From positions 1-52,691 of the IMG/VR virus record IMGVR_UViG_2872174743_000006: a stretch of 52,691 nt of DNA. One strand, given 5' to 3'. This document shows, in pieces, positions 5,610 through 45,370 of the stretch. Each line of letters opens with the position of its first letter. Position 1 is the stretch's first letter. The position numbers were made by a program, and so were the translations under genes. The stretch comes from a virus. Taxonomy: Duplodnaviria > Heunggongvirae > Uroviricota > Caudoviricetes. A model generated the notes under the pieces. The model did no database searches. It was not told the origin of the DNA and worked only from the letters and a program-made list of their open reading frames with translations.

Positions 5610-5861
5610 AACTGTTACGACAACGCTCCGATGGAAAGCTTCTGGGGAACGCTGAAAAATGAGAGCCTGAGCCACTATCGTTTTAATAACCGGGATGAAG
5701 CCATCTCAGTAATACGGGAATACATTGAGATTTTCTACAATCGTCAGCGTCGTCACTCTCGTCTGGGGAATATCTCCCCGGCAGCCTTCAGGGAAAAATA
5801 TCATCAGATGGCTGCTTAAAAAAAGAACAAATGGTAGTGTCCGCTATTGCCAGTACACCTC
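5610..5861 (+). mobile_element. IS600 (IS3 family) 3' fragment: orfB C-terminus plus right terminal repeat
   Basis: Encodes ...CYDNAPMESFWGTLKNESLSHYRFNNRDEAISVIREYIEIFYNRQRRHSRLGNISPAAFREKYHQMAA then an IR-like end at about 5861; directly abuts the IS66 element. Confidence 0.6.
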
Positions 5862-6136
5862 ATGTGGTTTGGGTTCGTAGTCGCTCTGAACTTGCGTTTC
5901 TGCTTACAGCGTAGCCTTAGCTCCTTACGAAGACGTGCCAGTCGGTCACGACCAACGATGATGCCATTCTCTGCCAGCTCCGTCTGGAGCCGCCGGGTTC
6001 CATATGTTTCGCGAGTGCGGATATGTGCCACCTTAATCTCCAGTTTTAGCCGCTCATCACTTTGTTTTCTGTCTGAGGGTTCATGCTGTACCCAGTTGTA
6101 ATAACCGCTCCTGGATACACCAAATACCTGACACAT
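5862..6136 (-). pseudogene. IS600 orfB, N-terminal part only
   Basis: MCQVFGVSRSGYYNWVQHEPSDRKQSDERLKLEIKVAHIRTRETYGTRRLQTELAENGII... then diverges after ...TTNPNH. Confidence 0.6.
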
Positions 6137-6171
6137 CGCTTCAATGGGAAATTGTTGTCGCCATTGTTCGA

Positions 6172-6474
6172 TTAACGCGTATTTTTCAGCGACTCCTGTG
6201 CAAAATACGCTGTTGCTTTTTTTAATATATCTCGCTCAAGGCGAGCTTCATTTAACGCCTTACGCAGTTGCAGAATTTCAGATTCCAGTTCAGCCACCGT
6301 GCGGGAACCAGGAGTACCGAGCCCTTTTCTGGCGGCGGTAACCCATTGTCCTAAAGTGCCTTCAGGAAGGGATAATCGGGAAGCGCCTTCACTGATCGAA
6401 AGTTGATTTTCAAGAACCGTTCTGACAGCTTCGGCTTTGAACTCTTTAGAGTAACGTTGGTTTTTTCTGCTCAT
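6172..6474 (-). CDS. IS600 OrfA
   Basis: 100-aa ORF MSRKNQRYSKEFKAEAVRTVLENQLSISEGASRLSLPEGTLGQWV..., IS3-family OrfA. Confidence 0.8.
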   Translation of the reverse strand: MSRKNQRYSKEFKAEAVRTVLENQLSISEGASRLSLPEGTLGQWVTAARKGLGTPGSRTVAELESEILQLRKALNEARLERDILKKATAYFAQESLKNTR

Positions 6475-6538
6475 TATTAGCTCCTTCTGATGCCATTCTA
6501 TTTCAGGAAGGAGTGTCCGTTAAACTCAGGCTACCTCA

Positions 6539-6587
6539 GTTCAACGGTTTTTGGATTACCTGCGACAATGTTTTTTAAATGCTGCAT
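6539..6587 (-). pseudogene. tfa: tail fibre assembly gene N-terminal remnant (about 16 codons) truncated by IS600
   Basis: ATG at 6585-6587 (minus), 5 bp after the stf stop, reads MQHLKNIVAGNPKT (lambdoid Tfa N-terminus) then runs into the IS600 end. Confidence 0.5.
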
Positions 6588-6589
6588 GA

Positions 6590-9406
6590 TTATACCTGCG
6601 ATACGTTATACCATGTTCCGTTAATTAACTTTTGTATTGGTCTGAATACTGCCGGATCATCACCATCGACTTCACCGATAATACCAAGCCCCGTGATTAC
6701 ATGGCCTGATTTTTCATACATCACGCCTTTCTTCATGGTCTGAACAACTCGTGTGCCAAGTCTGACATCTCTCACATAGCGGGAATCAAAGTTACCGTAA
6801 TCCGAGGGATTAACACGTCCCGTAATATTTATGGTTTTATTACTTTGAATGCTTCCGGAGACAAAGCGCATAACATGGACGTTATTAGCATAAACATCCA
6901 GATTACCATCGCCATTTTGTTTAAAGCCCGTATCATTATCACCCAATACAATCGAATTACCGCCAAGAGCACTGGCTGTTCCGATACCCAGTGCACCATT
7001 CAGTTGACCACCAGATAACGGCAGTGCACCAACATCTCCTGCTGAAGGTTTTCTGGTGGTGGTGTAAAATTCGGACCAGTCGGCTTCAAAACCATAACCA
7101 TCACGGGCTGAACGATAAAAAATACCGCCATTTTTATAATTAATCCGAAACTGAGCTGCAGGACAACTTCCTTCTCCCATATAAAAATGAATAATTAACG
7201 TTGATGCACCTCTAATAGTTGCGTTATAGGCTCCGCTACTCCAGTTCCATCCAACTGCTTTATCATTCGCAACGGTGCTTCCTGTTTTCCCTAAGGCAAA
7301 CGCACCAACATGACTTGCTTTTAATGTGATATCGGAGGAACCATCAAAAGCCACATTGCTTATTTTCCTGGCAGTTTTTAATTTTGCAGCTGTAGAAGCA
7401 TTGCCGGATAGTTCACCAGAAAGGCCACCGCTGAATGTTTGTCGATTAGTCCAGGTATTCGCTGTACTGAGTAACGGTATTTTCTCCCCGCTTGTGCCGA
7501 GTTCTCGTAAACCGAGGTATTCGATAACGGCAGCAACAGTCGATTTCGCAAGAATATCCCGCCCGACTTTTGTCAGGGTTGCCAGGCTGGCGACATCATT
7601 CCCCGTAAAATACGGAAACTTGTCTGCCGCAGTAGTAAGCCCGGCCAGCGCCGTCAGGGTGGCATCTTTCGGTTGCTTACCCGCAAGCGCGTTAGTCATG
7701 GTGGTCGCAACATTCGGGTCGTTTCCCAGCGCCGCCGCTAACTCGTTCAGCGTATTCAGTGCGTCAGGTGACGAATCTACAAGGGCGGCAATCGCAGCCA
7801 TAACGAAAGCCGTGCTTGCGATTTGGGTATTATTCGTTCCCTGTCGCGCAGTTGGTGTTGTTGGCGTTCCGGTCAGTGCAGGACTATTTAAGGGCGCTTT
7901 CTTGTTCGTTTCACCCATTACCGCCTTAACCGCTTTTGGCGTTGCCGCCAGTGACTCGGAAGTGCTGTTGGTCGCACTGCTGAGCTGTACTATCCCCTTT
8001 TTCGTCGTGCTCGCATCCTCCAGCGCCACGGCGGATGCAATATCCTCTGCCCGTTTTGCTGCTGTCTCGGCGCGCGTTGCCGCGGATTCCGCCGTACTTT
8101 TGCTCTGAGCTGCCGCCGTCGCACTACCAGCTGCCTCTGATGCTTTCATTGTTGCTGTCGTGGCACTACCTTTCGCTGCTGACGCTTGTCTGGTCGCCTC
8201 ATCTTTTGAAGCAGACGCAGATGATGCCGATGACGCCGCTGAACTGGCTGACGATGCGGCTGCCGCCTTAGAGGAAGCAGCATTGTCTGCTGAAGTCTTT
8301 GCATTTGTTTCAGAGGTTTTTGCTGCAGAAGCAGACCTCGCTGCTGCAGTGGCTTGCTCAGTGGCTTTGCCAGCCTTCGTTGTGGCTGTTGAAGCGGATG
8401 ATGCGGCGCTTTCTGCCGATTTTCCGGCGGCGCTAGCACTGGCTGAGGCCTGCCCGGCACTTGTTGACGCGGCACTGGCAGACGACGCGGCCGCTGTTTT
8501 TGAGCCTGCCGCAGCTGAGGCGCTCTGTCCCGCTGCTGTTTCAGAAGACTTAGCGTTCGTCTCGGACGTTTTTGCCGCCTTCGCGGAATTTCCTGCCACC
8601 GTTGCCGAGGAAGCTGCACTACTGGCACTTGATGATGCATTCGTTTCTGAAGATTTCGCTGCCTCTTTTGAAGCCGCCGCACCCCGTGCCGAGGTGGCAG
8701 CTTCTGACGCCTTCGTGGTCGCTGTGGATGCAGAAGTGGCTGCCGATTTTTGTGATGCTGCGGCATTCGTTTCTGACGTTTTCGCGGCACTGGCGCTGGT
8801 AGCTGCCGCGCTTTTTGATGACTCTGCAGCAGCAGCACTTTTTGCTGCTTCACGGGCCTTTGTCGATGCCGTTCCTGCGCTGGAAGACGCTGACTGAGCC
8901 GACGACGCGGCCTGTCCGGCTGACGTGCTTGCGGCACGTGCTGAGGCTGCAGCATCGGTTGCATGAGTTGCCGCCTCGCTGGCTGATGCACTGGCATCGC
9001 TGGCTGATTTTTTCGCGGCTGCCGTATTCTGTGCAACCGCGGAGGCGTTACGTGACACCTCTTCCACCATCTGCTCAAAGCGGCGCAGTGCCTCCGGTCG
9101 GACATCATCCTCCGTCATGGCACCGAGAAAATCATTTAGCGTACCTGGTCTGGAACCTTCATAGACGGTAATGGTCCCGGCATGTGAAGGCGGAAAACCT
9201 TCAACCAGCAGGGTGACGCTGTACTGACCATGCTCAACATCCATGCTGTAACGTCCGGCTTCATCCGGATTTTCAGAGGCCACCGTGTTCACCACCACCG
9301 TGCTGCTGGTTCGTCTGGCCTTCAGCACAATGGTGCAGTTCTGTACTGGTTTTCCTGTGCCATCTTTAAGCACGCCAGAAATTTTTACTGTCATACTTTC
9401 CACCAA
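6590..9406 (-). CDS. stf: side tail fibre protein
   Basis: 938-aa ORF: conserved N-terminal domain (MTVKISGVLKDGTGKPVQNCTI...), long Ala/Ser-rich repeat region, globular C-terminal domain; follows lom as in lambda. Confidence 0.8.
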   Translation of the reverse strand: MVESMTVKISGVLKDGTGKPVQNCTIVLKARRTSSTVVVNTVASENPDEAGRYSMDVEHGQYSVTLLVEGFPPSHAGTITVYEGSRPGTLNDFLGAMTEDDVRPEALRRFEQMVEEVSRNASAVAQNTAAAKKSASDASASASEAATHATDAAASARAASTSAGQAASSAQSASSSAGTASTKAREAAKSAAAAESSKSAAATSASAAKTSETNAAASQKSAATSASTATTKASEAATSARGAAASKEAAKSSETNASSSASSAASSATVAGNSAKAAKTSETNAKSSETAAGQSASAAAGSKTAAASSASAASTSAGQASASASAAGKSAESAASSASTATTKAGKATEQATAAARSASAAKTSETNAKTSADNAASSKAAAASSASSAASSASSASASKDEATRQASAAKGSATTATMKASEAAGSATAAAQSKSTAESAATRAETAAKRAEDIASAVALEDASTTKKGIVQLSSATNSTSESLAATPKAVKAVMGETNKKAPLNSPALTGTPTTPTARQGTNNTQIASTAFVMAAIAALVDSSPDALNTLNELAAALGNDPNVATTMTNALAGKQPKDATLTALAGLTTAADKFPYFTGNDVASLATLTKVGRDILAKSTVAAVIEYLGLRELGTSGEKIPLLSTANTWTNRQTFSGGLSGELSGNASTAAKLKTARKISNVAFDGSSDITLKASHVGAFALGKTGSTVANDKAVGWNWSSGAYNATIRGASTLIIHFYMGEGSCPAAQFRINYKNGGIFYRSARDGYGFEADWSEFYTTTRKPSAGDVGALPLSGGQLNGALGIGTASALGGNSIVLGDNDTGFKQNGDGNLDVYANNVHVMRFVSGSIQSNKTINITGRVNPSDYGNFDSRYVRDVRLGTRVVQTMKKGVMYEKSGHVITGLGIIGEVDGDDPAVFRPIQKLINGTWYNVSQV
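8000..9055. repeat. low-complexity Ala/Ser-rich coding repeats inside stf
   Basis: Protein motif AAKTSETNA three times plus related units; several frames on both strands are open across this stretch in the ORF track. Confidence 0.5.
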
Positions 9407-30676: not shown

Positions 30677-30974
30677 TTCACCACCAGCGTATCTGACCGA
30701 TGAAATAACCGGAGGCCATAATCACAAACACCAGCCAGATAAGAATGAACTTCCAGGTGGATAATTTTTCAGCCATCACTCGAATCTCCCGAATCAGTTT
30801 GCTAAAATCAAACACACTTTCTCCTTTGACTTTTCCAGAGTCAGGAAACACAAAACCCCGCTTGCAGCCAACAAACGGGTTTTTTACTTTTATTCACTTA
30901 GTTTTTGTCAGTTCGCAGGATTTCGTGTTATCCGTCCGTGTAAGCAAACCGCATTTTTCAGCAAAATATTCTGC

Positions 30975-31508
30975 TTATCTGTCGATACCCCAGCACGCCA
31001 GCGCGCTCTCCTGGTCACGACGGGATACCTGACCGTAGCAGTTGTTTGAACGAATACGGCAGTCTCTGCCACCGTCCTTAATCCACCAGCGAATCGCCTC
31101 ACACGCTCCCCTGCGATCACCTGCATTAATTCGTTTATAAAACGTCGACGGGAAACACTTACCGGGACCAATGTTGTACGGACAGAATGACGCGATCCCC
31201 GCTTTCTGGGGTTCGCTCAATGGCACTCTGATGTTTTTCTCCACCCATGCCAGCGCCTTATCACGCTCAATGGCGTTAACCCGGTCGCATTTTTCCTTCG
31301 ACAACTTCATGCCCGGAACGACAGGTTTGCCATCCACCAGGATGGCACCGCGGCAGATGGTCCAGATACCCGCGCCATCACGGTATGCCGTGGTGTGGTT
31401 ACCTTCCTTTTCATCCAGAAACTGGTCGAGAATGTCAGGCGCAGGCGCACCAGCGGCAATCAGCGCCAGAACGGCAGCCGACAGGCCGTATTTGATTTTG
31501 GTGTTCAT
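30975..31508 (-). CDS. R: SAR endolysin (lysozyme)
   Basis: 177-aa ORF with N-terminal signal-anchor-release segment MNTKIKYGLSAAVLALIAAGAPAPD and lysozyme-like body. Confidence 0.8.
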   Translation of the reverse strand: MNTKIKYGLSAAVLALIAAGAPAPDILDQFLDEKEGNHTTAYRDGAGIWTICRGAILVDGKPVVPGMKLSKEKCDRVNAIERDKALAWVEKNIRVPLSEPQKAGIASFCPYNIGPGKCFPSTFYKRINAGDRRGACEAIRWWIKDGGRDCRIRSNNCYGQVSRRDQESALACWGIDR

Positions 31509-31711
31509 GGATATATTAAATATTCAGCCGCTGTCCCTGGCCCACTAAATACGCACTTTAAGATAAGTCAGCCCCGGATGAAGCCAGTAAGCCGGCACTT
31601 TTTTAAAGGGTGGAGTATTAAAATCACGAAGAAGAGCCTCCCGCACAATTGCATCCGGTAATGCTGCCAACTTACTGATTTAGTGTATGATGGTGATTTT
31701 AAGGTGCTTGC

Positions 31712-31987
31712 GTGGCTTCCATTTCCATCAGATGTCCTTCCTGCTCCGCTACTGAAGGCGTGGTGCGTAACGGCAAAAGCACTGCCGGACATCAGCGCTA
31801 TCTCTGCTCTCATTGCCGTAAAACATGGCAACTACAGTTCACTTACACCGCCTCTCAGCCCGGTACGCACCAGAAAATCATTGATATGGCCATGAATGGC
31901 GTCGGATGTCGCGCCAGTGCACGCATTATGGGCGTTGGCCTCAACACGGTTTTACGTCACTTAAAAAACTCAGGCCGCAGTCGGTAA
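31712..31987 (+). CDS. insA: IS1 InsA
   Basis: 91-aa [42 protein letters not shown]... Confidence 0.85.
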
Positions 31988-32031
31988 CCTCGCGCATACA
32001 ACCGGGCAGTGATGTGATTGTCTGCGCTGAA

Positions 32032-32409
32032 ATGGACGAACAGTGGGGCTACGTCGGTGCTAAATCACGTCAGCGCTGGCTGTTTTACGCGTATGACAGG
32101 ATACGGAGGACGGTTGTGGCGCACGTCTTCGGTGAACGCACTCTGGCCACACTGGAGCGTCTTCTGAGCCTGCTGTCGGCCTTTGAGGTCGTGGTATGGA
32201 TGACGGATGGCTGGCCGCTGTATGAATCACGCCTGAAGGGAAAGCTGCACGTTATCAGCAAGCGTTACACTCAGCGCATTGAGCGACATAATCTGAATCT
32301 GAGACAACATCTGGCAAGGCTGGGACGGAAGTCACTGTCGTTCTCAAAATCGGTGGAGCTGCATGACAAGGTCATCGGGCATTATCTGAACATAAAACAC
32401 TATCAGTAA
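32032..32409 (+). CDS. insB: IS1 InsB frame
   Basis: [22 protein letters not shown]...; Met chosen inside ORF 31906-32409. Confidence 0.8.
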
Positions 32410-33131
32410 GTTGGAGTCATTACCATTGCATCCTTATCAGCACCACTGGCCAGCGCTTCAATCTCAGCAGCTATCTGCAGATATCCCATGCAACGACCAA
32501 TGCACTTCATCAGCCCCTGCTTTTTATTGTTCTTCAGGTAATCAATGGCAAATTCAATGAGCGCCTCACTATGCTGGTGCGATGGCGGTGTTAATTTCCC
32601 ATTTTCTGAGATGGTTATTTTCCCGCCATCTCCGTATACAACAAAGGATGGCCGGTTACACTCCCATTCCTGATCTTTATCAGGTGCAGACGCAATAAAA
32701 TAACGTTTATTTCCTTCCTCTCCGGCACTTTTAACCGTAATGGAGTACTCAGACTGCAGACAAGACGCCTCTTTTTCTGACCGCAGTGTTGACGGCGGCA
32801 TCTTCAGAGAACAAGTAATTATTCCCGGTAGTTTTCCTCTGTAGGTTATCAACACATCCTGCGCCTCTAAAATGATGGGGCGCTTTTCCTGCAACGGTTC
32901 GTTCCCTTCACATAACCCGGCAGCAACATCCATGAAAAACTGCTTCGCCTGCTTTTTCGCCTCCGCTTCGTAAAACTCCAGCTTGGCACCTTCAGTACGG
33001 TCAAGACTAATCGCCACATATGGCAACAACAGTGACGGATACCCACCAATTTCCAGTGCCACAGTAACAGTAATCTTATCCGGGTAATTATTTATCCCTT
33101 TAACAACCAGTTCGTATTTTTTCTTCATCAC
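32403..33131 (-). pseudogene. unknown lysis-cassette gene (native about 270 aa) with 3' end displaced by IS1
   Basis: Last 7 codons lie inside IS1; joining across the target duplication restores an in-frame tail ...ADKDAIVREALLRDFNTPPFKKVPAYWLHPGLTYLKVRI ending near 31553; no recognisable family. Confidence 0.45.
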
Positions 33132-33132
33132 T

Positions 33133-33348
33133 TTACTCTCCCCGTACAGCCTTACGACGGTCCTCTCTGATTTTGAAATACAGGTTAGTCAGATATGTCA
33201 GCAGCCCAAACAGCAGACTCCCCAGCACGCCTATTGCCGCCCACTGAGACGGGGAAACCCTGTCCAGCAACTGCAGGAACCAGTAGCCCGTTCCCACCGC
33301 TGACGTGGTGTATGACACACCTGTTGTGATTTTTTCCATCTGGTACAT
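33133..33348 (-). CDS. S: class II holin (S21-like pinholin) with dual-start motif
   Basis: Start set at [10 protein letters not shown] (ATG 33346-33348); two TM segments; ends ...[18 protein letters not shown] like phage 21 S. Confidence 0.75.
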
Positions 33349-33498
33349 ACCCCGTCTCCCGTTATCCGGAAGCTGACAACAATAAAAAAAGCCACCAGTT
33401 AAGTACTGATGGCTCTGATAACTCATGCAGGCATCTCAGACGACCCACTGACACTACCGGTGAGTTTAACGATACCTTCCATTTGACTGGCTCACTTT

Positions 33499-35121
33499 TT
33501 ATGATGATGCCGGTGCATTTATCTCCAGCACCAGACTTTCTATCTCAACGCCATACGCTGCATTTTTGGTAATATCCGTCAGCGTCAGTGCATTTAGTCC
33601 CACTGCCAGACTGTCTTTTATGGCCTGGAATGCCGGGCCAGCCACTCCATTCAGTTTCGGAGTAACCGTGGCACTGCCGGCGGTGAACACCAGCTCCAGC
33701 GTCTGCCAGTCGTTACTGTAATTCCCGAACTCGCCCAACTTTGTGTTTCCGGCTTTCTTGTGATGCATCAGATTCCGTTTGCCGTCTGTGGTCTGGGTGA
33801 AGAACGACATCAGGAACGGGTTACCAGTCCCGGTCATCGCCACGACGTCAGGTAACGCTACATCGGTATACAGATAAATTCCCAGACCGAACTGATTGTT
33901 GGTCAGTGCGCCTGACAGTCGAAACTTACAGCTCAGTCTGCCACCCCGTGTCAGCAGGGAGACTGCGTCATCCACCGGGCGCGTCAGGGACCAGGCTTTA
34001 TTGCTCTGCTTGGCGATCTTAAATACACCACCCGACAACTGAATTCCGCCGTCCTTAATGGTCCAGCCCTGCGCAGCAGCCTCTCCGGCTGTCGGCAGCA
34101 GGGAGATTGTGCGAACGGACGTATCTGCAGACGGACCCGATGGCGTGTCGCCGCCGGGCGAGGGTTTGATTTCCGGTGCCTTACCACTGATGAAGGCTGA
34201 GGTGCGCCCGGCTGCGTTCAGAATAGCGGTTGCCATACGATCGGGAATAATGCCACGACGCGCCCATGAGCTGAAATTTGTCGGGCGATTTGATGATACC
34301 CAGTTTTTGTTCGTTCGGGATGCCGAACCGTAATAACCAGACCCGACAATATCAGGATCTTCTGACGGGTTGTTTGTCGGTGTATTAACTCCGCTACCAT
34401 CGGTCATAAAGGGAACAAAATAAATCTGCTGGGATTCTTTACCTTTATATGCACCATATACCACTTCATATTGCGTACCGTGTTCTTGTTTCCACGCGTA
34501 TGTCGTGTCGCCACAAATCCAGGGGACTGTTGCCGGACTTCCACCGTGACACTGCGCCGCCAGCCCGGCAAGGTCAGCACGGAACTGCTGTACCATTGCA
34601 AGAAATGCTGCTGGCTGCTGGGCGTAACTGGCATTCGTCATATCGAATTCCCCCTGCATCCAGCATATCGCCAGCAAAACGTTTTTCGGGTTTTTCTGCA
34701 ATGCTGCCTTCGTGCGGAAAAGCAGATCCTGATATAACGGCTTACCCACTCCCCAGCGAGCCGAATCCTGACTGGCCCCCGTGGACTCGCTGAATGTCCC
34801 CTCCGTGCCCTGGGTGAATGCAGAACCACCACGGCAGCACGGAACCAGAAGAATACCGGCATTCGCCGGAATAAACGGCAACAATTTCTTCGCGATATGT
34901 AATCCCTGCCCCACGCATCCATACTGAGCTGCGCTGGCTTTCGGGTGTGAAAACTTACTCAAATCCTGAACATCATGCAGGCAGTGGTCCGCAGGAATAA
35001 TGTCATTGTAGTTACAGGACGCACCACCCGGCGTGACAGTGCTGCGACGCGCCAGCTGTTTAATACGCGGGTCCGGACGGTCATATGTCTCCGGCAGCGG
35101 AAGCCCTTCACCGTAAGCCAT
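33499..35121 (-). CDS. NanS-p-like sialate 9-O-acetylesterase (SASA domain)
   Basis: 540-aa ORF at the position this gene occupies downstream of the stx locus in Stx-phage backbones, preceded by a DUF1737 ORF. Confidence 0.65.
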   Translation of the reverse strand: MAYGEGLPLPETYDRPDPRIKQLARRSTVTPGGASCNYNDIIPADHCLHDVQDLSKFSHPKASAAQYGCVGQGLHIAKKLLPFIPANAGILLVPCCRGGSAFTQGTEGTFSESTGASQDSARWGVGKPLYQDLLFRTKAALQKNPKNVLLAICWMQGEFDMTNASYAQQPAAFLAMVQQFRADLAGLAAQCHGGSPATVPWICGDTTYAWKQEHGTQYEVVYGAYKGKESQQIYFVPFMTDGSGVNTPTNNPSEDPDIVGSGYYGSASRTNKNWVSSNRPTNFSSWARRGIIPDRMATAILNAAGRTSAFISGKAPEIKPSPGGDTPSGPSADTSVRTISLLPTAGEAAAQGWTIKDGGIQLSGGVFKIAKQSNKAWSLTRPVDDAVSLLTRGGRLSCKFRLSGALTNNQFGLGIYLYTDVALPDVVAMTGTGNPFLMSFFTQTTDGKRNLMHHKKAGNTKLGEFGNYSNDWQTLELVFTAGSATVTPKLNGVAGPAFQAIKDSLAVGLNALTLTDITKNAAYGVEIESLVLEINAPASS

Positions 35122-35154
35122 GGCATTGGACTGCCCGGCCAGGGCAACAACAAA

Positions 35155-35388
35155 TTAATACTCCGGGTTGCTGGTGGTGCTGATAACTGCGCCTTCTCCA
35201 TCCGACGGCTTCACCACCACAGGTGTGGTGACATCACCTTCCGCCGCAATGGCCTGCATCAGGGTATAAGGCGTGATGGCCACCGGACTGCCAAATGGCT
35301 GCCACCCCTCCTTCAGTTTTTGTGTCAGTCGCTCCGCAAGGTCTGACGGCGACGCCGCCCTGACCACGTCATAGTGTTTAAATGCCAT
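35155..35388 (-). CDS. DUF1737 small protein
   Basis: 77-aa ORF MAFKHYDVVRAASPSDLAERLTQKLKEGWQPFGSPV... directly upstream of the esterase. Confidence 0.55.
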   Translation of the reverse strand: MAFKHYDVVRAASPSDLAERLTQKLKEGWQPFGSPVAITPYTLMQAIAAEGDVTTPVVVKPSDGEGAVISTTSNPEY

Positions 35389-35850
35389 AAATCCTCCCGG
35401 CCTGGATAATATTGTGAGTAAAATGAGGAGCGGGCTGAAGTCCGGAAGTTACAGGACAATGGCAGAAGATAGACAACAGCCCGCAATATGAAAAAGGCCG
35501 CGCTATTGCGCAGAGTGATTACTGTCGGATATTATTCACCAGCTGAAATATTACTTCACGTTTTGTTGTTTATTCCTTGCCGCCCGCGTCTCCCAGCGCG
35601 GGCTTTTTTTGTCCATAAGAAAGCCCCTCCGGAGAGGGGCTGGAGAGTGGCGCTATGTGCCATTGCATGGTGCCGGGTGCCTCCCGGTGAGTTCAGTATC
35701 AGCACCTGAACCCGCACAGAAAGGATAAGGGTCGGTGACAAAACACCAGTTGCTGATTGCCCCTCCGCACAGGGGGATTCACCATGCCAGTTTCTTTTAA
35801 CAAACTCCCCGCAAACCAGACAACAGTCAACCGCCTGAATTGTGAGACAT

Positions 35851-35876
35851 TTAAAAAAAAGCCCGCAAAAGCGAGC
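35851..35876 (-). terminator. rho-independent terminator after the tRNA cluster
   Basis: Minus strand GGCTCGC TTTT GCGGGC followed by TTTTTTTT. Confidence 0.45.
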
Positions 35877-35889
35877 CAGGGAAAATAAG

Positions 35890-35966
35890 TGTGGCGCGTT
35901 CTACTGTATTCGAACCAGTGACCGATTGCTTAGAAGGCAATTGCTCTGTCCGGCTGAGCTAACAAC
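35890..35966 (-). tRNA. tRNA-Arg (anticodon UCU), argU-like
   Basis: Cloverleaf readable by hand: TAGCTCAG...GAGC D-arm, anticodon loop CTTCTAA, TTCGAAT T-loop, encoded CCA; one acceptor and one T-stem mismatch. Confidence 0.55.
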
Positions 35967-35979
35967 GCAGGATACAGAT

Positions 35980-36056
35980 AATGAACCGCCTTCGGGGACC
36001 CGAACTCCGCGCAACCAGCTTCGAAGGCTGGCGCTCTTTCCTGATGAGCTAATGGC
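35980..36056 (-). tRNA. tRNA-Arg-like (anticodon UCG), possibly degenerate
   Basis: D-arm and anticodon arm (loop CTTCGAA) canonical, but T-loop reads TTCGGGT, stems have mismatches and the 3' end reads TCA not CCA. Confidence 0.4.
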
Positions 36057-36063
36057 GGTATGT

Positions 36064-36139
36064 GATGGTGGCCCTTGCTGGATTTGAACCAGCGACCTGG
36101 CGATTATGAGTCGCTCGCTCTCACCACTGAGCTAAAGGG
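36064..36139 (-). tRNA. tRNA-Ile2 (anticodon CAU), ileX/ileZ-like
   Basis: GGCCCTTTAGCTCAGTGGTGAGAGCGAGCGACTCATAATCGCCAGGTCGCTGGTTCAAATCCAGCAAGGGCCACCA; closely resembles E. coli tRNA-Ile(CAU) as recalled. Confidence 0.7.
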
Positions 36140-36190
36140 CCGGGAGCAAAATAATAATGGTGCGTAATTAATTCTGCAATCTCATCCGTT

Positions 36191-37240
36191 TCAAACGATT
36201 AAATCCTGAACTTCCCTGACTGTCTGCTCAAAACGTCCGGTCTCCAGTTCAACGCCAATCGCACGACGCCCGAGCGCCAGTGCCGCTTTTACCGTTGAAC
36301 CTGAGCCCATAAAAAAATCTGCAACCTGGTCTCCCGGACGACTGCTCGCGTTGATTATCTGCTGCAACATTTCTGCCGTTTTTTCGCACGGATGTTTCCC
36401 TGGATAGTACTGCACCGGTTTATACGTCCACACATCGGTGTACGGCACCTGCACCGTCACACCGAAATACCTCCGCAAATTTTTATATTCACTCTGCAGC
36501 TCCACATACTGCCGGCTCAGCTCACTGTATGTGCTGACCAGTTGGTAATGGGACTTTTCCAGTTCTCCCCGCTGATGTTTCTCTTCTGCCACCCGGGCAA
36601 ACAGCGACTGTAATTTCAGATAATCGCTTTCGTTCGGTAGCTGCCACTGACTGGCACTGAACCAGTGCGACACCATGTTTTTCTTTCCTGTGGCATCTGC
36701 AATCTGTTTTGCCGTTATCCCCAGGGCAGCTCGCGCATCACGAAAGTAAGCAATCAGCGGGGCCATCACATGCTGTTTCAGTACCCTGCCCTTCGCCTCA
36801 TAGCCATCATCTTTCGGGCGGTACGGCCCCTGATAATGTTCCGCGAACAGAATGCGCTCTGTGGCGGGGAAATACGCCCGCAGGCTTTCCTTGTTGCACC
36901 CGTTCCAGCGTCCGGACGGCTTTGCCCAGATAATATGGTTCAGCACACTGAAGCGTTCACGCATCATGATTTCGATATCAGATGCCAGGCGATGACCACA
37001 GAACAGGTAAAGACTTCCGGCAGGTTTCAGCACCCGCCAGAACTGCGCCAGACACTGGTCCAGCCACTTCAGGTAATCATCGTCGCCCTTCCACTGGTTA
37101 TCCCAGCCCTCAGGCTTCACTTTAAAGTACGGCGGGTCCGTGACTATCAGGTCAACAGAATTTTCGGGTAACGACCGGATAAATTCCAGGCAGTCGGCGT
37201 TGATTAACTCACAACTGGATATTTTTACAGTATTAGCCAT
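36191..37240 (-). CDS. DNA methyltransferase (N6-adenine/N4-cytosine family, DPPY motif), orphan
   Basis: 349-aa ORF with DLIVTDPPY motif and C-terminal SAM-binding FFMGSGST; no restriction endonuclease gene adjacent. Confidence 0.7.
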   Translation of the reverse strand: MANTVKISSCELINADCLEFIRSLPENSVDLIVTDPPYFKVKPEGWDNQWKGDDDYLKWLDQCLAQFWRVLKPAGSLYLFCGHRLASDIEIMMRERFSVLNHIIWAKPSGRWNGCNKESLRAYFPATERILFAEHYQGPYRPKDDGYEAKGRVLKQHVMAPLIAYFRDARAALGITAKQIADATGKKNMVSHWFSASQWQLPNESDYLKLQSLFARVAEEKHQRGELEKSHYQLVSTYSELSRQYVELQSEYKNLRRYFGVTVQVPYTDVWTYKPVQYYPGKHPCEKTAEMLQQIINASSRPGDQVADFFMGSGSTVKAALALGRRAIGVELETGRFEQTVREVQDLIV

Positions 37241-37391
37241 AGATCAATAAGCACTTCTCTGATAGGCTCATACCGCTTTTGCGCAAAGCAGATGGGCCTG
37301 AGGTTTGCTTGTGACCCCAACGCATGAGCAGATGGCTGGTGGGTGCCCCTAACACCCACCAGCCGCCCATTTACCACAAATAAAAAAGCCT

Positions 37392-37676
37392 TCACTGCGG
37401 AAGGCGTCTGTAACAACCGAACTGATAGTCTGCCAGACCCGCCATAACCAGCTGGGTCAGTATTAACTGGCAGCGTTCGCGTGAAAGGTAAGTATTCTGC
37501 GCAATCTCCCCGACTGTCGCCGGTTCGGTGACGCTTAATTCATTAAACACCACTCTGGCGGTTTCTGTCATATCCTGCTGTTTCAGCATGTCTTTTTCCC
37601 TTTTCCGGTTAACGTGACACACCAATAACTCTTGTCGAAAAAGCCAGCAAGCTGAAAGACAGGTATTCACCGCCAC
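37392..37676 (-). CDS. hypothetical small protein, possible winged-helix
   Basis: 94-aa ORF (alternative start MLKQQDM at about 37589); stop overlaps a minus-strand hairpin plus T-run. Confidence 0.35.
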   Translation of the reverse strand: MAVNTCLSACWLFRQELLVCHVNRKREKDMLKQQDMTETARVVFNELSVTEPATVGEIAQNTYLSRERCQLILTQLVMAGLADYQFGCYRRLPQ

Positions 37677-37937
37677 CAGCGCGTTTACTGTACTGACGCG
37701 ATTTCAGTCATAAAAAACCCGCCAGGCGGCAGGTTTAAGCTGTATGACGGAGTGACCAATCTTAACAGATTAAGATGGTTTTTGTTATAACACAAATCAT
37801 TTCCTCGGTATCTTTATATCCCTTATGTTTCAATCGCCATAGATACTAGACTGGCCCCCTGAATCTCCAGACAACCAGTATCACTTAAATAAGTGATAGT
37901 CTTAATACTAGTTTTTAGACTAGTCATTGGAGTACAG

Positions 37938-38303
37938 ATGATTGATGTCTTAGGGCCGGAGAAACGCAGACGGCGTACCACACAGGAAAAGATCGCAATT
38001 GTTCAGCAGAGCTTTGAACCGGGGATGACGGTCTCCCTCGTTGCCCGGCAACATGGTGTAGCAGCCAGCCAGTTATTTCTCTGGCGTAAGCAATACCAGG
38101 AAGGAAGTCTTACTGCTGTGGCCGCCGGAGAACAGGTTGTTCCTGCCTCTGAACTTGCTGCCGCCATGAAGCAGATTAAAGAACTCCAGCGCCTGCTCGG
38201 CAAGAAAACGATGGAAAATGAACTCCTCAAAGAAGCCGTTGAATATGGACGGGCAAAAAAGTGGATAGCGCACGCGCCCTTATTGCCCGGGGATGGGGAG
38301 TAA
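37938..38303 (+). CDS. insC: IS2 InsC (OrfA)
   Basis: [47 protein letters not shown]... Confidence 0.85.
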
Positions 38304-39166
38304 GCTTAGTCAGCCGTTGTCTCCGGGTGTCGCGTGCGCAGTTGCACGTCATTCTCAGACGAACCGATGACTGGATGGATGGCCGCCGCAGTCGTCACAC
38401 TGATGATACGGATGTGCTTCTCCGTATACACCATGTTATCGGAGAGCTGCCCACGTATGGTTATCGTCGGGTATGGGCGCTGCTTCGCAGACAGGCAGAA
38501 CTTGATGGTATGCCTGCGATCAATGCCAAACGTGTTTACCGGATCATGCGCCAGAATGCGCTGTTGCTTGAGCGAAAGCCTGCTGTACCGCCATCGAAAC
38601 GGGCACATACAGGCAGAGTGGCCGTGAAAGAAAGCAATCAGCGATGGTGCTCTGACGGGTTCGAGTTCTGCTGTGATAACGGAGAGAGACTGCGTGTCAC
38701 GTTCGCGCTGGACTGCTGTGATCGTGAGGCACTGCACTGGGCGGTGACTACCGGTGGCTTCAACAGTGAAACAGTACAGGACGTCATGCTGGGAGCGGTG
38801 GAACGCCGCTTCGGCAACGATCTTCCGTCGTCTCCAGTGGAGTGGCTGACGGATAATGGTTCATGCTACCGGGCTAATGAAACACGCCAGTTCGCCCGGA
38901 TGTTGGGACTTGAACCGAAGAACACGGCGGTGCGGAGTCCGGAGAGTAACGGAATAGCAGAGAGCTTCGTGAAAACGATAAAGCGTGACTACATCAGTAT
39001 CATGCCCAAACCAGACGGGTTAACGGCAGCAAAGAACCTTGCAGAGGCGTTCGAGCATTATAACGAATGGCATCCGCATAGTGCGCTGGGTTATCGCTCG
39101 CCACGGGAATATCTGCGGCAGCGGGCTTGTAATGGGTTAAGTGATAACAGATGTCTGGAAATATAG
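38261..39166 (+). CDS. insD: IS2 InsD (OrfB transposase)
   Basis: 301-aa ORF with IS3-family DDE region, ending ...[16 protein letters not shown]. Confidence 0.85.
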
Positions 39167-39189
39167 GGGCAAATCCAGTAACTGTTCAT

Positions 39190-39597
39190 TTATCTTGAAT
39201 CATTTTCGTGATTCATATAGCAATCCATTTCTAAAGATACCTCGAGCATTGCCAGACACCCTTCAACAAACCCTTCAGCTTTCTGCAATCTAATAACAAC
39301 TTGATTAAGCGATATCCCCATTTTCGCCCCTAACGCTCGTAATGTGATCCCATATACATAATACATTTCCAGTAATTGGTATTGATATGGTTCCTTTTTC
39401 TTGAGAACTGCCATAACTGAACTAATGATAAGACCATCATCATCGCAACATTGCGGTCGATATTTTACTTTTGAGGGGATGAGGCCTTTAAACCCCGCAG
39501 CAATTGGCGACCAACTAACATTCTCATGATTATTTGCCGCCCATGCTCCCCAGCGTTCGAGAACCATCTGAATATCACGCATCAACTTTCTCCACAA
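39190..39597 (-). CDS. Q: late-gene antiterminator Q (phage 82/21-type family)
   Basis: 135-aa [23 protein letters not shown]...RPQCCDDD...[16 protein letters not shown]..., at the Q position. Confidence 0.65.
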
Positions 39598-44986: not shown

Positions 44987-45370
44987 GATGGCAGCCTCCG
45001 TTGACTGTGGAAAACTTCCACCACCGGAGCTGCGAAACTCACTGGTGGCAGACTGAACAGGGTTCGCAGTACCGGCGTCAACGGAGACCGGCGAGCCTTT
45101 CGGCTCCCCTGCCCAGCCCACCATAATTCTGGCGTGCGTGAGCGCGGACGATAAAAAAGACGCTGGCGCGTCATATATCGCCGTTGACAATTCCGGGCTG
45201 CGACCCCCGGCACCCACTTTATAAGGTGCAGAGACAGTGTAACGTCCCGAAATTGCAGAATCAATATTTGGTCTTGAAATGATCATATAGCTGCTGATAT
45301 CTTTAGAACTGTTCTTGGATGTTTCGGAGCCGTTTTATGCGAAACAGCTCCCCGTTATTGATGTTGAGTG

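Follow-up and report, generated by a model that had tools for sequence, protein, structure and literature searches.

The late region considered here raises a simple question: if about 500 bp between a tRNA cluster and an esterase gene, in a prophage of Shiga-toxin-phage type, hold no toxin gene, is this segment a toxin locus that stands empty? A reading made from the DNA letters alone (the sequence-only reading) had taken it for the slot in which stxAB would lie, occupied by nothing but terminator-like hairpins, and had offered two origins for it, a never-converted relative of the Stx phages or a toxin-loss derivative. The analysis covers the window, i.e. the whole 52,691-nucleotide stretch of DNA, and all positions are counted from its first letter.

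The explanation that we favour, and in which we have considerable confidence, is that the window carries an stx-free, decaying lambdoid prophage of the Stx-phage backbone family, in which a conserved module made up of a convergent pair of small-RNA genes would occupy the 500 bp from argO to nanS-p, while the toxin site would be a junction at 35850-35853. This junction lies between the terminator of the tRNA cluster and the start of the module, and its unoccupied condition is a common state in E. coli. The lack of an open reading frame (ORF) between the tRNAs and nanS-p should accordingly not be taken to mean that a toxin locus has been emptied. An organisation of this kind, in which convergent small RNAs lie at a moron site, is already known from Tree et al. 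in 2014 (PMC4104026), and the main value of the present result lies in correct annotation, with the point of stx insertion seen as a defined junction beside a small-RNA module.

Gene order of the late region

Coordinates are collected in Table 1. Read along the minus strand, the order is Q, three tRNAs, about 500 bp, DUF1737/esterase, P21-type holin, lysozyme and Rz/Rz1, so that ARAGORN and Pfam bear out the order proposed previously (Q, tRNAs, about 500 bp, DUF1737, esterase, pinholin, endolysin, Rz/Rz1) and place it on the minus strand. The earlier list was nevertheless incomplete: Q and the tRNAs are separated by IS2, a 94-aa ORF and a DNA methylase, and the holin and the lysozyme by a DUF1327 ORF and IS1, none of which it named. 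With Q, the tRNAs, nanS-p and the lysis genes all present, the assignment to an Stx-phage-like backbone also holds. The methylase gene is equally placed in the Stx2a phage Stx2_14040 and in E. coli 55989, at a DNA identity of 92-96%.

Table 1 Features of the late region, with the evidence for each.
Feature	Position	Strand	Evidence
Late antiterminator Q gene	39190-39597	minus	Pfam PF06530, E = 4.5e-49
IS2, 1331 bp	37847-39177	plus	terminal sequences and InsC/InsD-type ORFs
DNA methyltransferase (N6/N4), between Q and tRNAs	36191-37240	minus	Pfam PF01555
tRNA cluster ileZ (CAT), argN (TCG), argO (TCT)	36141-35892	minus	ARAGORN
Intrinsic terminator-like hairpin directly after argO	35852-35877	minus	fold and alignment
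Unoccupied stx (moron) site	35850-35853		blastn block boundaries
STnc100-family sRNA gene	35611-35816	minus	Rfam RF02076, full length
EcOnc08/21/42-type RNA, 3' part	35502-35610	plus	probe match and terminator
nanS-p (DUF1737 + SASA esterase + DUF6645), split by a stop	33499-35388	minus	translation, relatives, Pfam
DUF1737 ORF	35388-35155	minus	Pfam
SASA/DUF6645 esterase ORF	35121-33499	minus	Pfam
Whole lysis block, holin to Rz/Rz1	30209-33426	minus (IS1 ORFs plus)	Pfam and ORF lists
P21-type holin ORF	33426-33133	minus	Pfam PF04971
DUF1327 ORF	33131-32403	minus	Pfam
IS1 ORFs (InsA/InsB)	31712-32409	plus	ORF lists
Lysozyme	31508-30975	minus	Pfam
Rz	30676-30209	minus	Pfam
Rz1	30456-30271	minus	Pfam

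The tRNA cluster and its terminator

The CAT tRNA is identical at all 76 of 76 positions to Sakai ileZ (annotated as tRNA-Ile), and ileZ is intact. Rfam tRNA scores for the cluster are 72.5, 43.4 and 53.4 bits, both Arg tRNAs scoring lower in the window than in relatives, where argO reaches 70.1 bits and argN 50-58 bits. Alignment with relatives shows that argO (TCT) has a C61>A change unique to the window, which disrupts the G53-C61 pair, together with C67>G, an acceptor-stem mismatch, while argN (TCG) has a unique acceptor-stem change and ends in TCA in place of CCA. The two Arg tRNAs (35892-36059, minus) look degraded.

The hairpin that had been placed on the minus strand at 35851-35876 is indeed present, as a stem at 35877-35860 followed by a run of eight T (-11.4 kcal/mol, z = -3.1). 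In alignment the same argO-adjacent hairpin is retained upstream of stx2A in Stx2 phages, and it appears to be the terminator of the tRNA cluster and no relic of a lost toxin operon.

Two convergent small-RNA genes

On the minus strand the segment contains a match to the Rfam STnc100 model (RF02076) that extends over model positions 1-206 of 206 and scores 143.2 bits, the gathering score being 47 (E = 1e-33). EcOnc05/06/13/27, sRNA103 and the relatives of PasD belong to the same family. The gene has its own terminator, a minus-strand hairpin at 35641-35622 (-18 kcal/mol) with a weak U-tract (UUUCUUAU), which the sequence-only reading missed. Members of the family are equally placed in six loci, namely VT1-Sakai (Stx1), Stx2_14040 (Stx2a), PhiR5_1, the 55989 prophage, Nil3 and Sakai Sp5; the comparison loci with STnc100 are labelled L001-L005 and L007, L002 being Stx2_14040. 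The context of the family, downstream of stxB or of tRNAs and upstream of nanS-p, is found in the window also. Other Rfam matches (OmrA-B, anti-hemB, Leu_leader and others) fall far below their gathering scores and were dismissed as due to the terminator hairpins.

In the literature STnc100 is placed 75 nt downstream of stx2B (PMC12370729), a spacing that is reproduced in L002 and L007, and it has been equated with the Hfq-bound RNA EcOnc27/sRNA103 (PMC12711010), while PasD, an sRNA that immediately precedes a prophage sialic-acid esterase gene, is regarded as related to it in a 2026 preprint. The product in the present case would be a minus-strand STnc100-type sRNA of roughly 200-250 nt, of a kind that is Hfq-bound in O157 and presumably base-pairs in trans. 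Alignment of the six loci reveals a hypervariable segment inside STnc100 (about 35700-35765, minus) with nearly invariant stems on either side, and this variable segment may be the region that specifies the target. In the window it is the PhiR5_1 allele, unlike all four Sakai alleles. The allelic diversity of the module is of some applied interest, since a statistical link between HUS outcome and the STnc100 region that follows stx2B was reported recently (PMC12711010).

The partner on the plus strand is recognised by the published northern probe of Tree et al. (2014) for EcOnc08/21/42, which matches at 35 of 35 positions (35502-35536) and whose orientation assigns the RNA to the plus strand. 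Its terminator corresponds to the second hairpin noticed previously (35579-35612), which folds as a stem at 35582-35603 with a run of seven T reaching 35610 (-16.9 kcal/mol, z = -3.0) and abuts the STnc100 terminator back to back. Because the probe match is complete, this hairpin can be read as the 3' end of a known RNA; it would be the terminator of a convergent Hfq-bound RNA rather than a remnant of a toxin operon. Among the six loci the terminator shows no covariation, there being one non-compensated stem change together with loop changes. The claim that the segment holds only hairpins has accordingly to be given up, in view of the STnc100 match and the probe match inside it, and the stxB-downstream sRNA region, for which a search had been suggested, is present in the form of STnc100 and the EcOnc08/21/42-type RNA.

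Such an arrangement has precedents. Tree et al. (2014) described convergent Hfq-bound sRNAs at the moron site downstream of Q/PR', 3' of stx2B in Sp5, and the same organisation in the stx-free prophages Sp3, Sp4, Sp9, Sp10, Sp11 and Sp17, with Hfq-CRAC peaks and northern bands for the Sakai homologues of both RNAs and a length of about 271 nt for the EcOnc08/21/42-type RNA in Sakai (PMC4104026). From these homologues we infer that both RNAs are expressed in the present host, and likewise their modes of action; with IS2 separating Q from the late genes, and with the other signs of decay, the late operon around them may not be transcribed. If the plus-strand RNA is about 271 nt long, as in Sakai, it would start near 35340, inside the 5' end of nanS-p, and would cover, in antisense, the GGAGGA ribosome-binding site and first codons of that gene, an overlap deduced from position and length. 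No convincing sigma-70 promoter for either sRNA was found in the segment. The single promoter-like site on the plus strand (35382-35410) is weak and would yield about 194 nt, not about 271 nt, while for a TTGACT at 35826-35821 on the minus strand the sigma-70 promoter scan found no properly spaced -10; the northern sizes in Sakai suggest that STnc100 starts further upstream than this hexamer would imply.

The anti-sRNAs AsxR and AgvB, which fill the convergent position in Sp5 and Sp10, were also considered as the plus-strand partner. The test was a covariance-model match to their conserved 3' region of about 42 nt (RF02703 and RF02702); no match at E <= 10 was obtained in 35380-35900, whereas AsxR of Sp5, the positive control, scored 88.1 bits, and these candidates were rejected.

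It might of course be objected that the segment is a functionless spacer, its hairpins being due to chance or merely structural. In this host the predicted RNAs do rest on homology, and the STnc100 literature is thin, the published effects being confined to overexpression (PMC12711010). Yet six loci show hardly any variation at 35430-35640, although the nanS-p DNA next to it is no more than 73-81% identical among them, the covariance model scores the STnc100 match at three times its gathering threshold, and the Sakai homologues give both Hfq-CRAC peaks and northern bands, which together make a spacer highly improbable. Still harder to credit is the suggestion that the segment encodes a small protein, for instance the 73-aa ORF at 35488-35709 (plus) or one of the RefSeq 'hypothetical proteins' annotated here in several genomes. 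ORFs of 39-73 aa do occur on both strands, but the ATG at 35488 is peculiar to the window, five relatives having ACG or TCG, and in relatives the frame is interrupted by a 1-nt indel in a T-run and by 3-nt and roughly 20-nt indels; the ORF annotated in 55989 is itself flagged as an incomplete pseudogene. The 73-aa ORF was on these grounds rejected as protein-coding.

Position of the toxin-gene junction

If the 500 bp are an sRNA module, the place at which the toxin genes enter must be sought elsewhere, and it is given by blastn comparison with Stx2_14040, which shows similarity on both sides of the stx2AB genes, in agreement with the earlier expectation for the flanks. One block aligns window 34218-35849 with phage positions 2814-4469, comprising nanS-p and the sRNA module and ending 41 bp after stx2B; the other aligns 35854-37499 with 5805-7450, comprising the terminator, the tRNAs and the methylase, at 92% identity. 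These two colinear blocks are set apart by 4 bp in the window as against 1335 bp (stx2A + stx2B) in Stx2_14040. Because the 1335-bp stx2AB indel falls between 35849 and 35854, the stx slot is evidently the 4-bp junction and not the 500-bp segment for which it had been mistaken. In L002 (4470-5804) and L007 (3018-4422) a short direct repeat encloses the stx2AB cassette, in the form of ATATCTG on the upstream side and AATCTGTG on the downstream side.

A search of phage records with a 201-nt query across the junction tells the same story: about 287 records (Stx2a, Stx2c, Stx2d, phiP27 and others) break at window position 35854, and three stx-free phages, Nil3 (AM051322), PhiR49_2 and vB_EcoS-611R1, span the junction. 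The sequence at the junction, argO-terminator-AAATG-TCTCACAATTCAG, is the same, bar one terminator-stem base, as in these stx-free phages and in the 55989 prophage. Among 5426 complete E. coli genomes an unbroken junction match occurs in 1006, including O157:H7 strains that have stx elsewhere, the wider 4.5-kb arrangement in 1120, and the 500-bp segment itself in 2910, at a median copy number of 2; the exact junction pattern had 0 matches in species-representative genome contigs. The segment is to this extent, as the sequence-only reading had allowed might tell against it, an ordinary feature between the genes of related phages, stx-free and Stx phages alike, and in Stx1 and Stx2 phages it follows stxB.

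The module begins at a recognisable box, TC(A/T)CAATTCAG, at 35849-35839, where at least 4 different upstream sequences join: the tRNA terminator, the stx2B flank, the stx1B flank and the Q-proximal DNA of PhiR5_1. The common module of VT1-Sakai likewise begins at this box, which there reads TCTCAATTCAG and is found some 70 bp past stx1B, and in three contexts a -10-like hexamer (TTAAAT in the window, or TGTAAT) lies just upstream of the TCxCAATTCAG box. Since the Sakai northern sizes are 222-247 nt, a start of STnc100 at this box is suggested. One may then speculate, though we regard the proposal as a whole as rather doubtful, that the box is a shared module boundary, that with STnc100 starting there cargo exchange would take place inside the sRNA promoter and insertion of the toxin genes would rewire STnc100 transcription, and that the plus-strand RNA would act in cis as a brake on nanS-p translation. 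In practical terms, the argO terminator/TCxCAATTCAG junction could serve to mark lambdoid prophages as occupied or unoccupied.

Never converted or toxin lost

There remains the choice between the two origins originally put forward. The statement that no toxin ORF is present can be extended to the whole window: across all 52.7 kb, tblastn with Stx1A/B and Stx2A/B, for stx genes or remnants, and word-7 blastn with both stx cassettes gave only chance-level matches, so that the residual stx fragments for which a search had been recommended were not found by either method. In addition, SNPs adjacent to the junction (CACACTTATTTTCCCTGG vs CATATTTA-TTTACCAGG) group the window with stx-free copies and not with the Stx2-phage haplotype.

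An Stx ancestor could in principle have lost stxAB by precise deletion, or by exchange with an stx-free prophage in which the tRNA block and the STnc100 module acted as recombination arms, and several points speak for such a history. The backbone is common to Stx2a phages, with the 92% identity over tRNAs and methylase already mentioned; ATCTG occurs as a short repeat at both ends of the Stx2 cassette; and the flanks assort independently in E. coli, some matches covering only query positions 85-201 and others only 1-88, from which it follows that exchange at the junction boundary does occur. A clean recombinational replacement of an occupied site would, moreover, give an identical sequence. 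Against this, no stx fragment or scar is seen, Nil3 and about 1000 stx-free genome copies have the same junction, the SNPs beside it are those of the stx-free haplotype, and over the downstream flank identity to the Stx2 phages compared amounts to no more than 73-81%. We therefore consider loss of the toxin genes unlikely. Of the two alternatives left standing by the sequence-only reading, a never-converted relative appears far more likely than a toxin-loss derivative because of the lack of any stx remnant, the junction shared with about 1000 stx-free copies and the stx-free SNP haplotype, and the site has presumably never been occupied.

Comparison with known systems

The closest parallels are the moron-site pairs of Sakai, EcOnc05 with EcOnc08/21 in Sp4 and EcOnc13-type with EcOnc42 in Sp15 (Tree et al. 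2014, PMC4104026). Like them, the module of the window follows Q/PR' and the tRNAs, precedes nanS-p, and consists of an STnc100-type RNA converging on a plus-strand RNA, with an identical EcOnc08/21/42 probe target; window 35390-35694 is 97.4% identical to Sp15/VT1-Sakai. Unlike them, it gives no match to the probes for EcOnc05, EcOnc06, EcOnc13 and EcOnc27, its STnc100 being of the PhiR5_1 allele, and its prophage is disrupted by IS elements.

With Stx2a phages of the Sp5/933W type, such as Stx2_14040, the window shares the succession Q, (methylase), ileZ-argN-argO, terminator, [site], STnc100, nanS-p and holin, and an upstream flank 89-92% identical, but the 1335-bp stx2AB cassette is missing. 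Sp5 differs further in having AsxR (88 bits) as the convergent partner, where the window has the EcOnc08/21/42 type and neither AsxR nor AgvB. The stx-free Nil3 and the 55989 prophage, for all their agreement at the junction, have an EcOnc05-type STnc100 allele with a deletion of about 20 nt. The likeness to PasD lies in an sRNA directly upstream of a prophage esterase gene, the copy in the window being placed in the family by its Rfam match; the 2026 preprint on PasD reports STnc100 matches as markers of Stx-phage-derived regions.

Decay of the prophage

Apart from the tRNA-Arg genes, damage is most apparent in nanS-p, where a TAT>TAA change puts an in-frame stop at 35155-35157 (minus), 7 codons before the GQSN motif. 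The position is a conserved Tyr in the four relatives L001-L004 (PEYYFVV...GQSN), and the next ATG downstream of the stop lies after the motif. What had been described as two genes, DUF1737 and an esterase, are thus fragments of a single nanS-p ORF cut by a nonsense codon, and nanS-p is a pseudogene.

The IS2 element is complete and lies 12 bp beyond the stop codon of Q. Its flanking 5-mers, GATAC and GTAAC, differ, which implies that there is no target-site duplication and that a rearrangement is possible; homology to the Stx2a phage L002 breaks off at 37784 and resumes at 39424, on either side of IS2. The element probably uncouples or disturbs PR'-dependent late transcription. Taken with the IS1 insertion, the nonsense mutation and the damaged tRNA-Arg genes, it indicates a prophage in decay. 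Exact protein matches assign the window to record CP026834.1, and the load of IS1 and IS2 allows no more than a guess at a Shigella origin.

Two minor observations may be added. The 242-aa DUF1327 ORF extends to the IS1 end, its homologue in PhiR5_1 being 211 aa long. In the early region, a C4 antisense RNA (78.8 bits) and isrK (56.4 bits), both above the Rfam gathering score, lie side by side at 45041-45229 (minus) and constitute a P1/P7-type immunity or anti-Q-like RNA pair.
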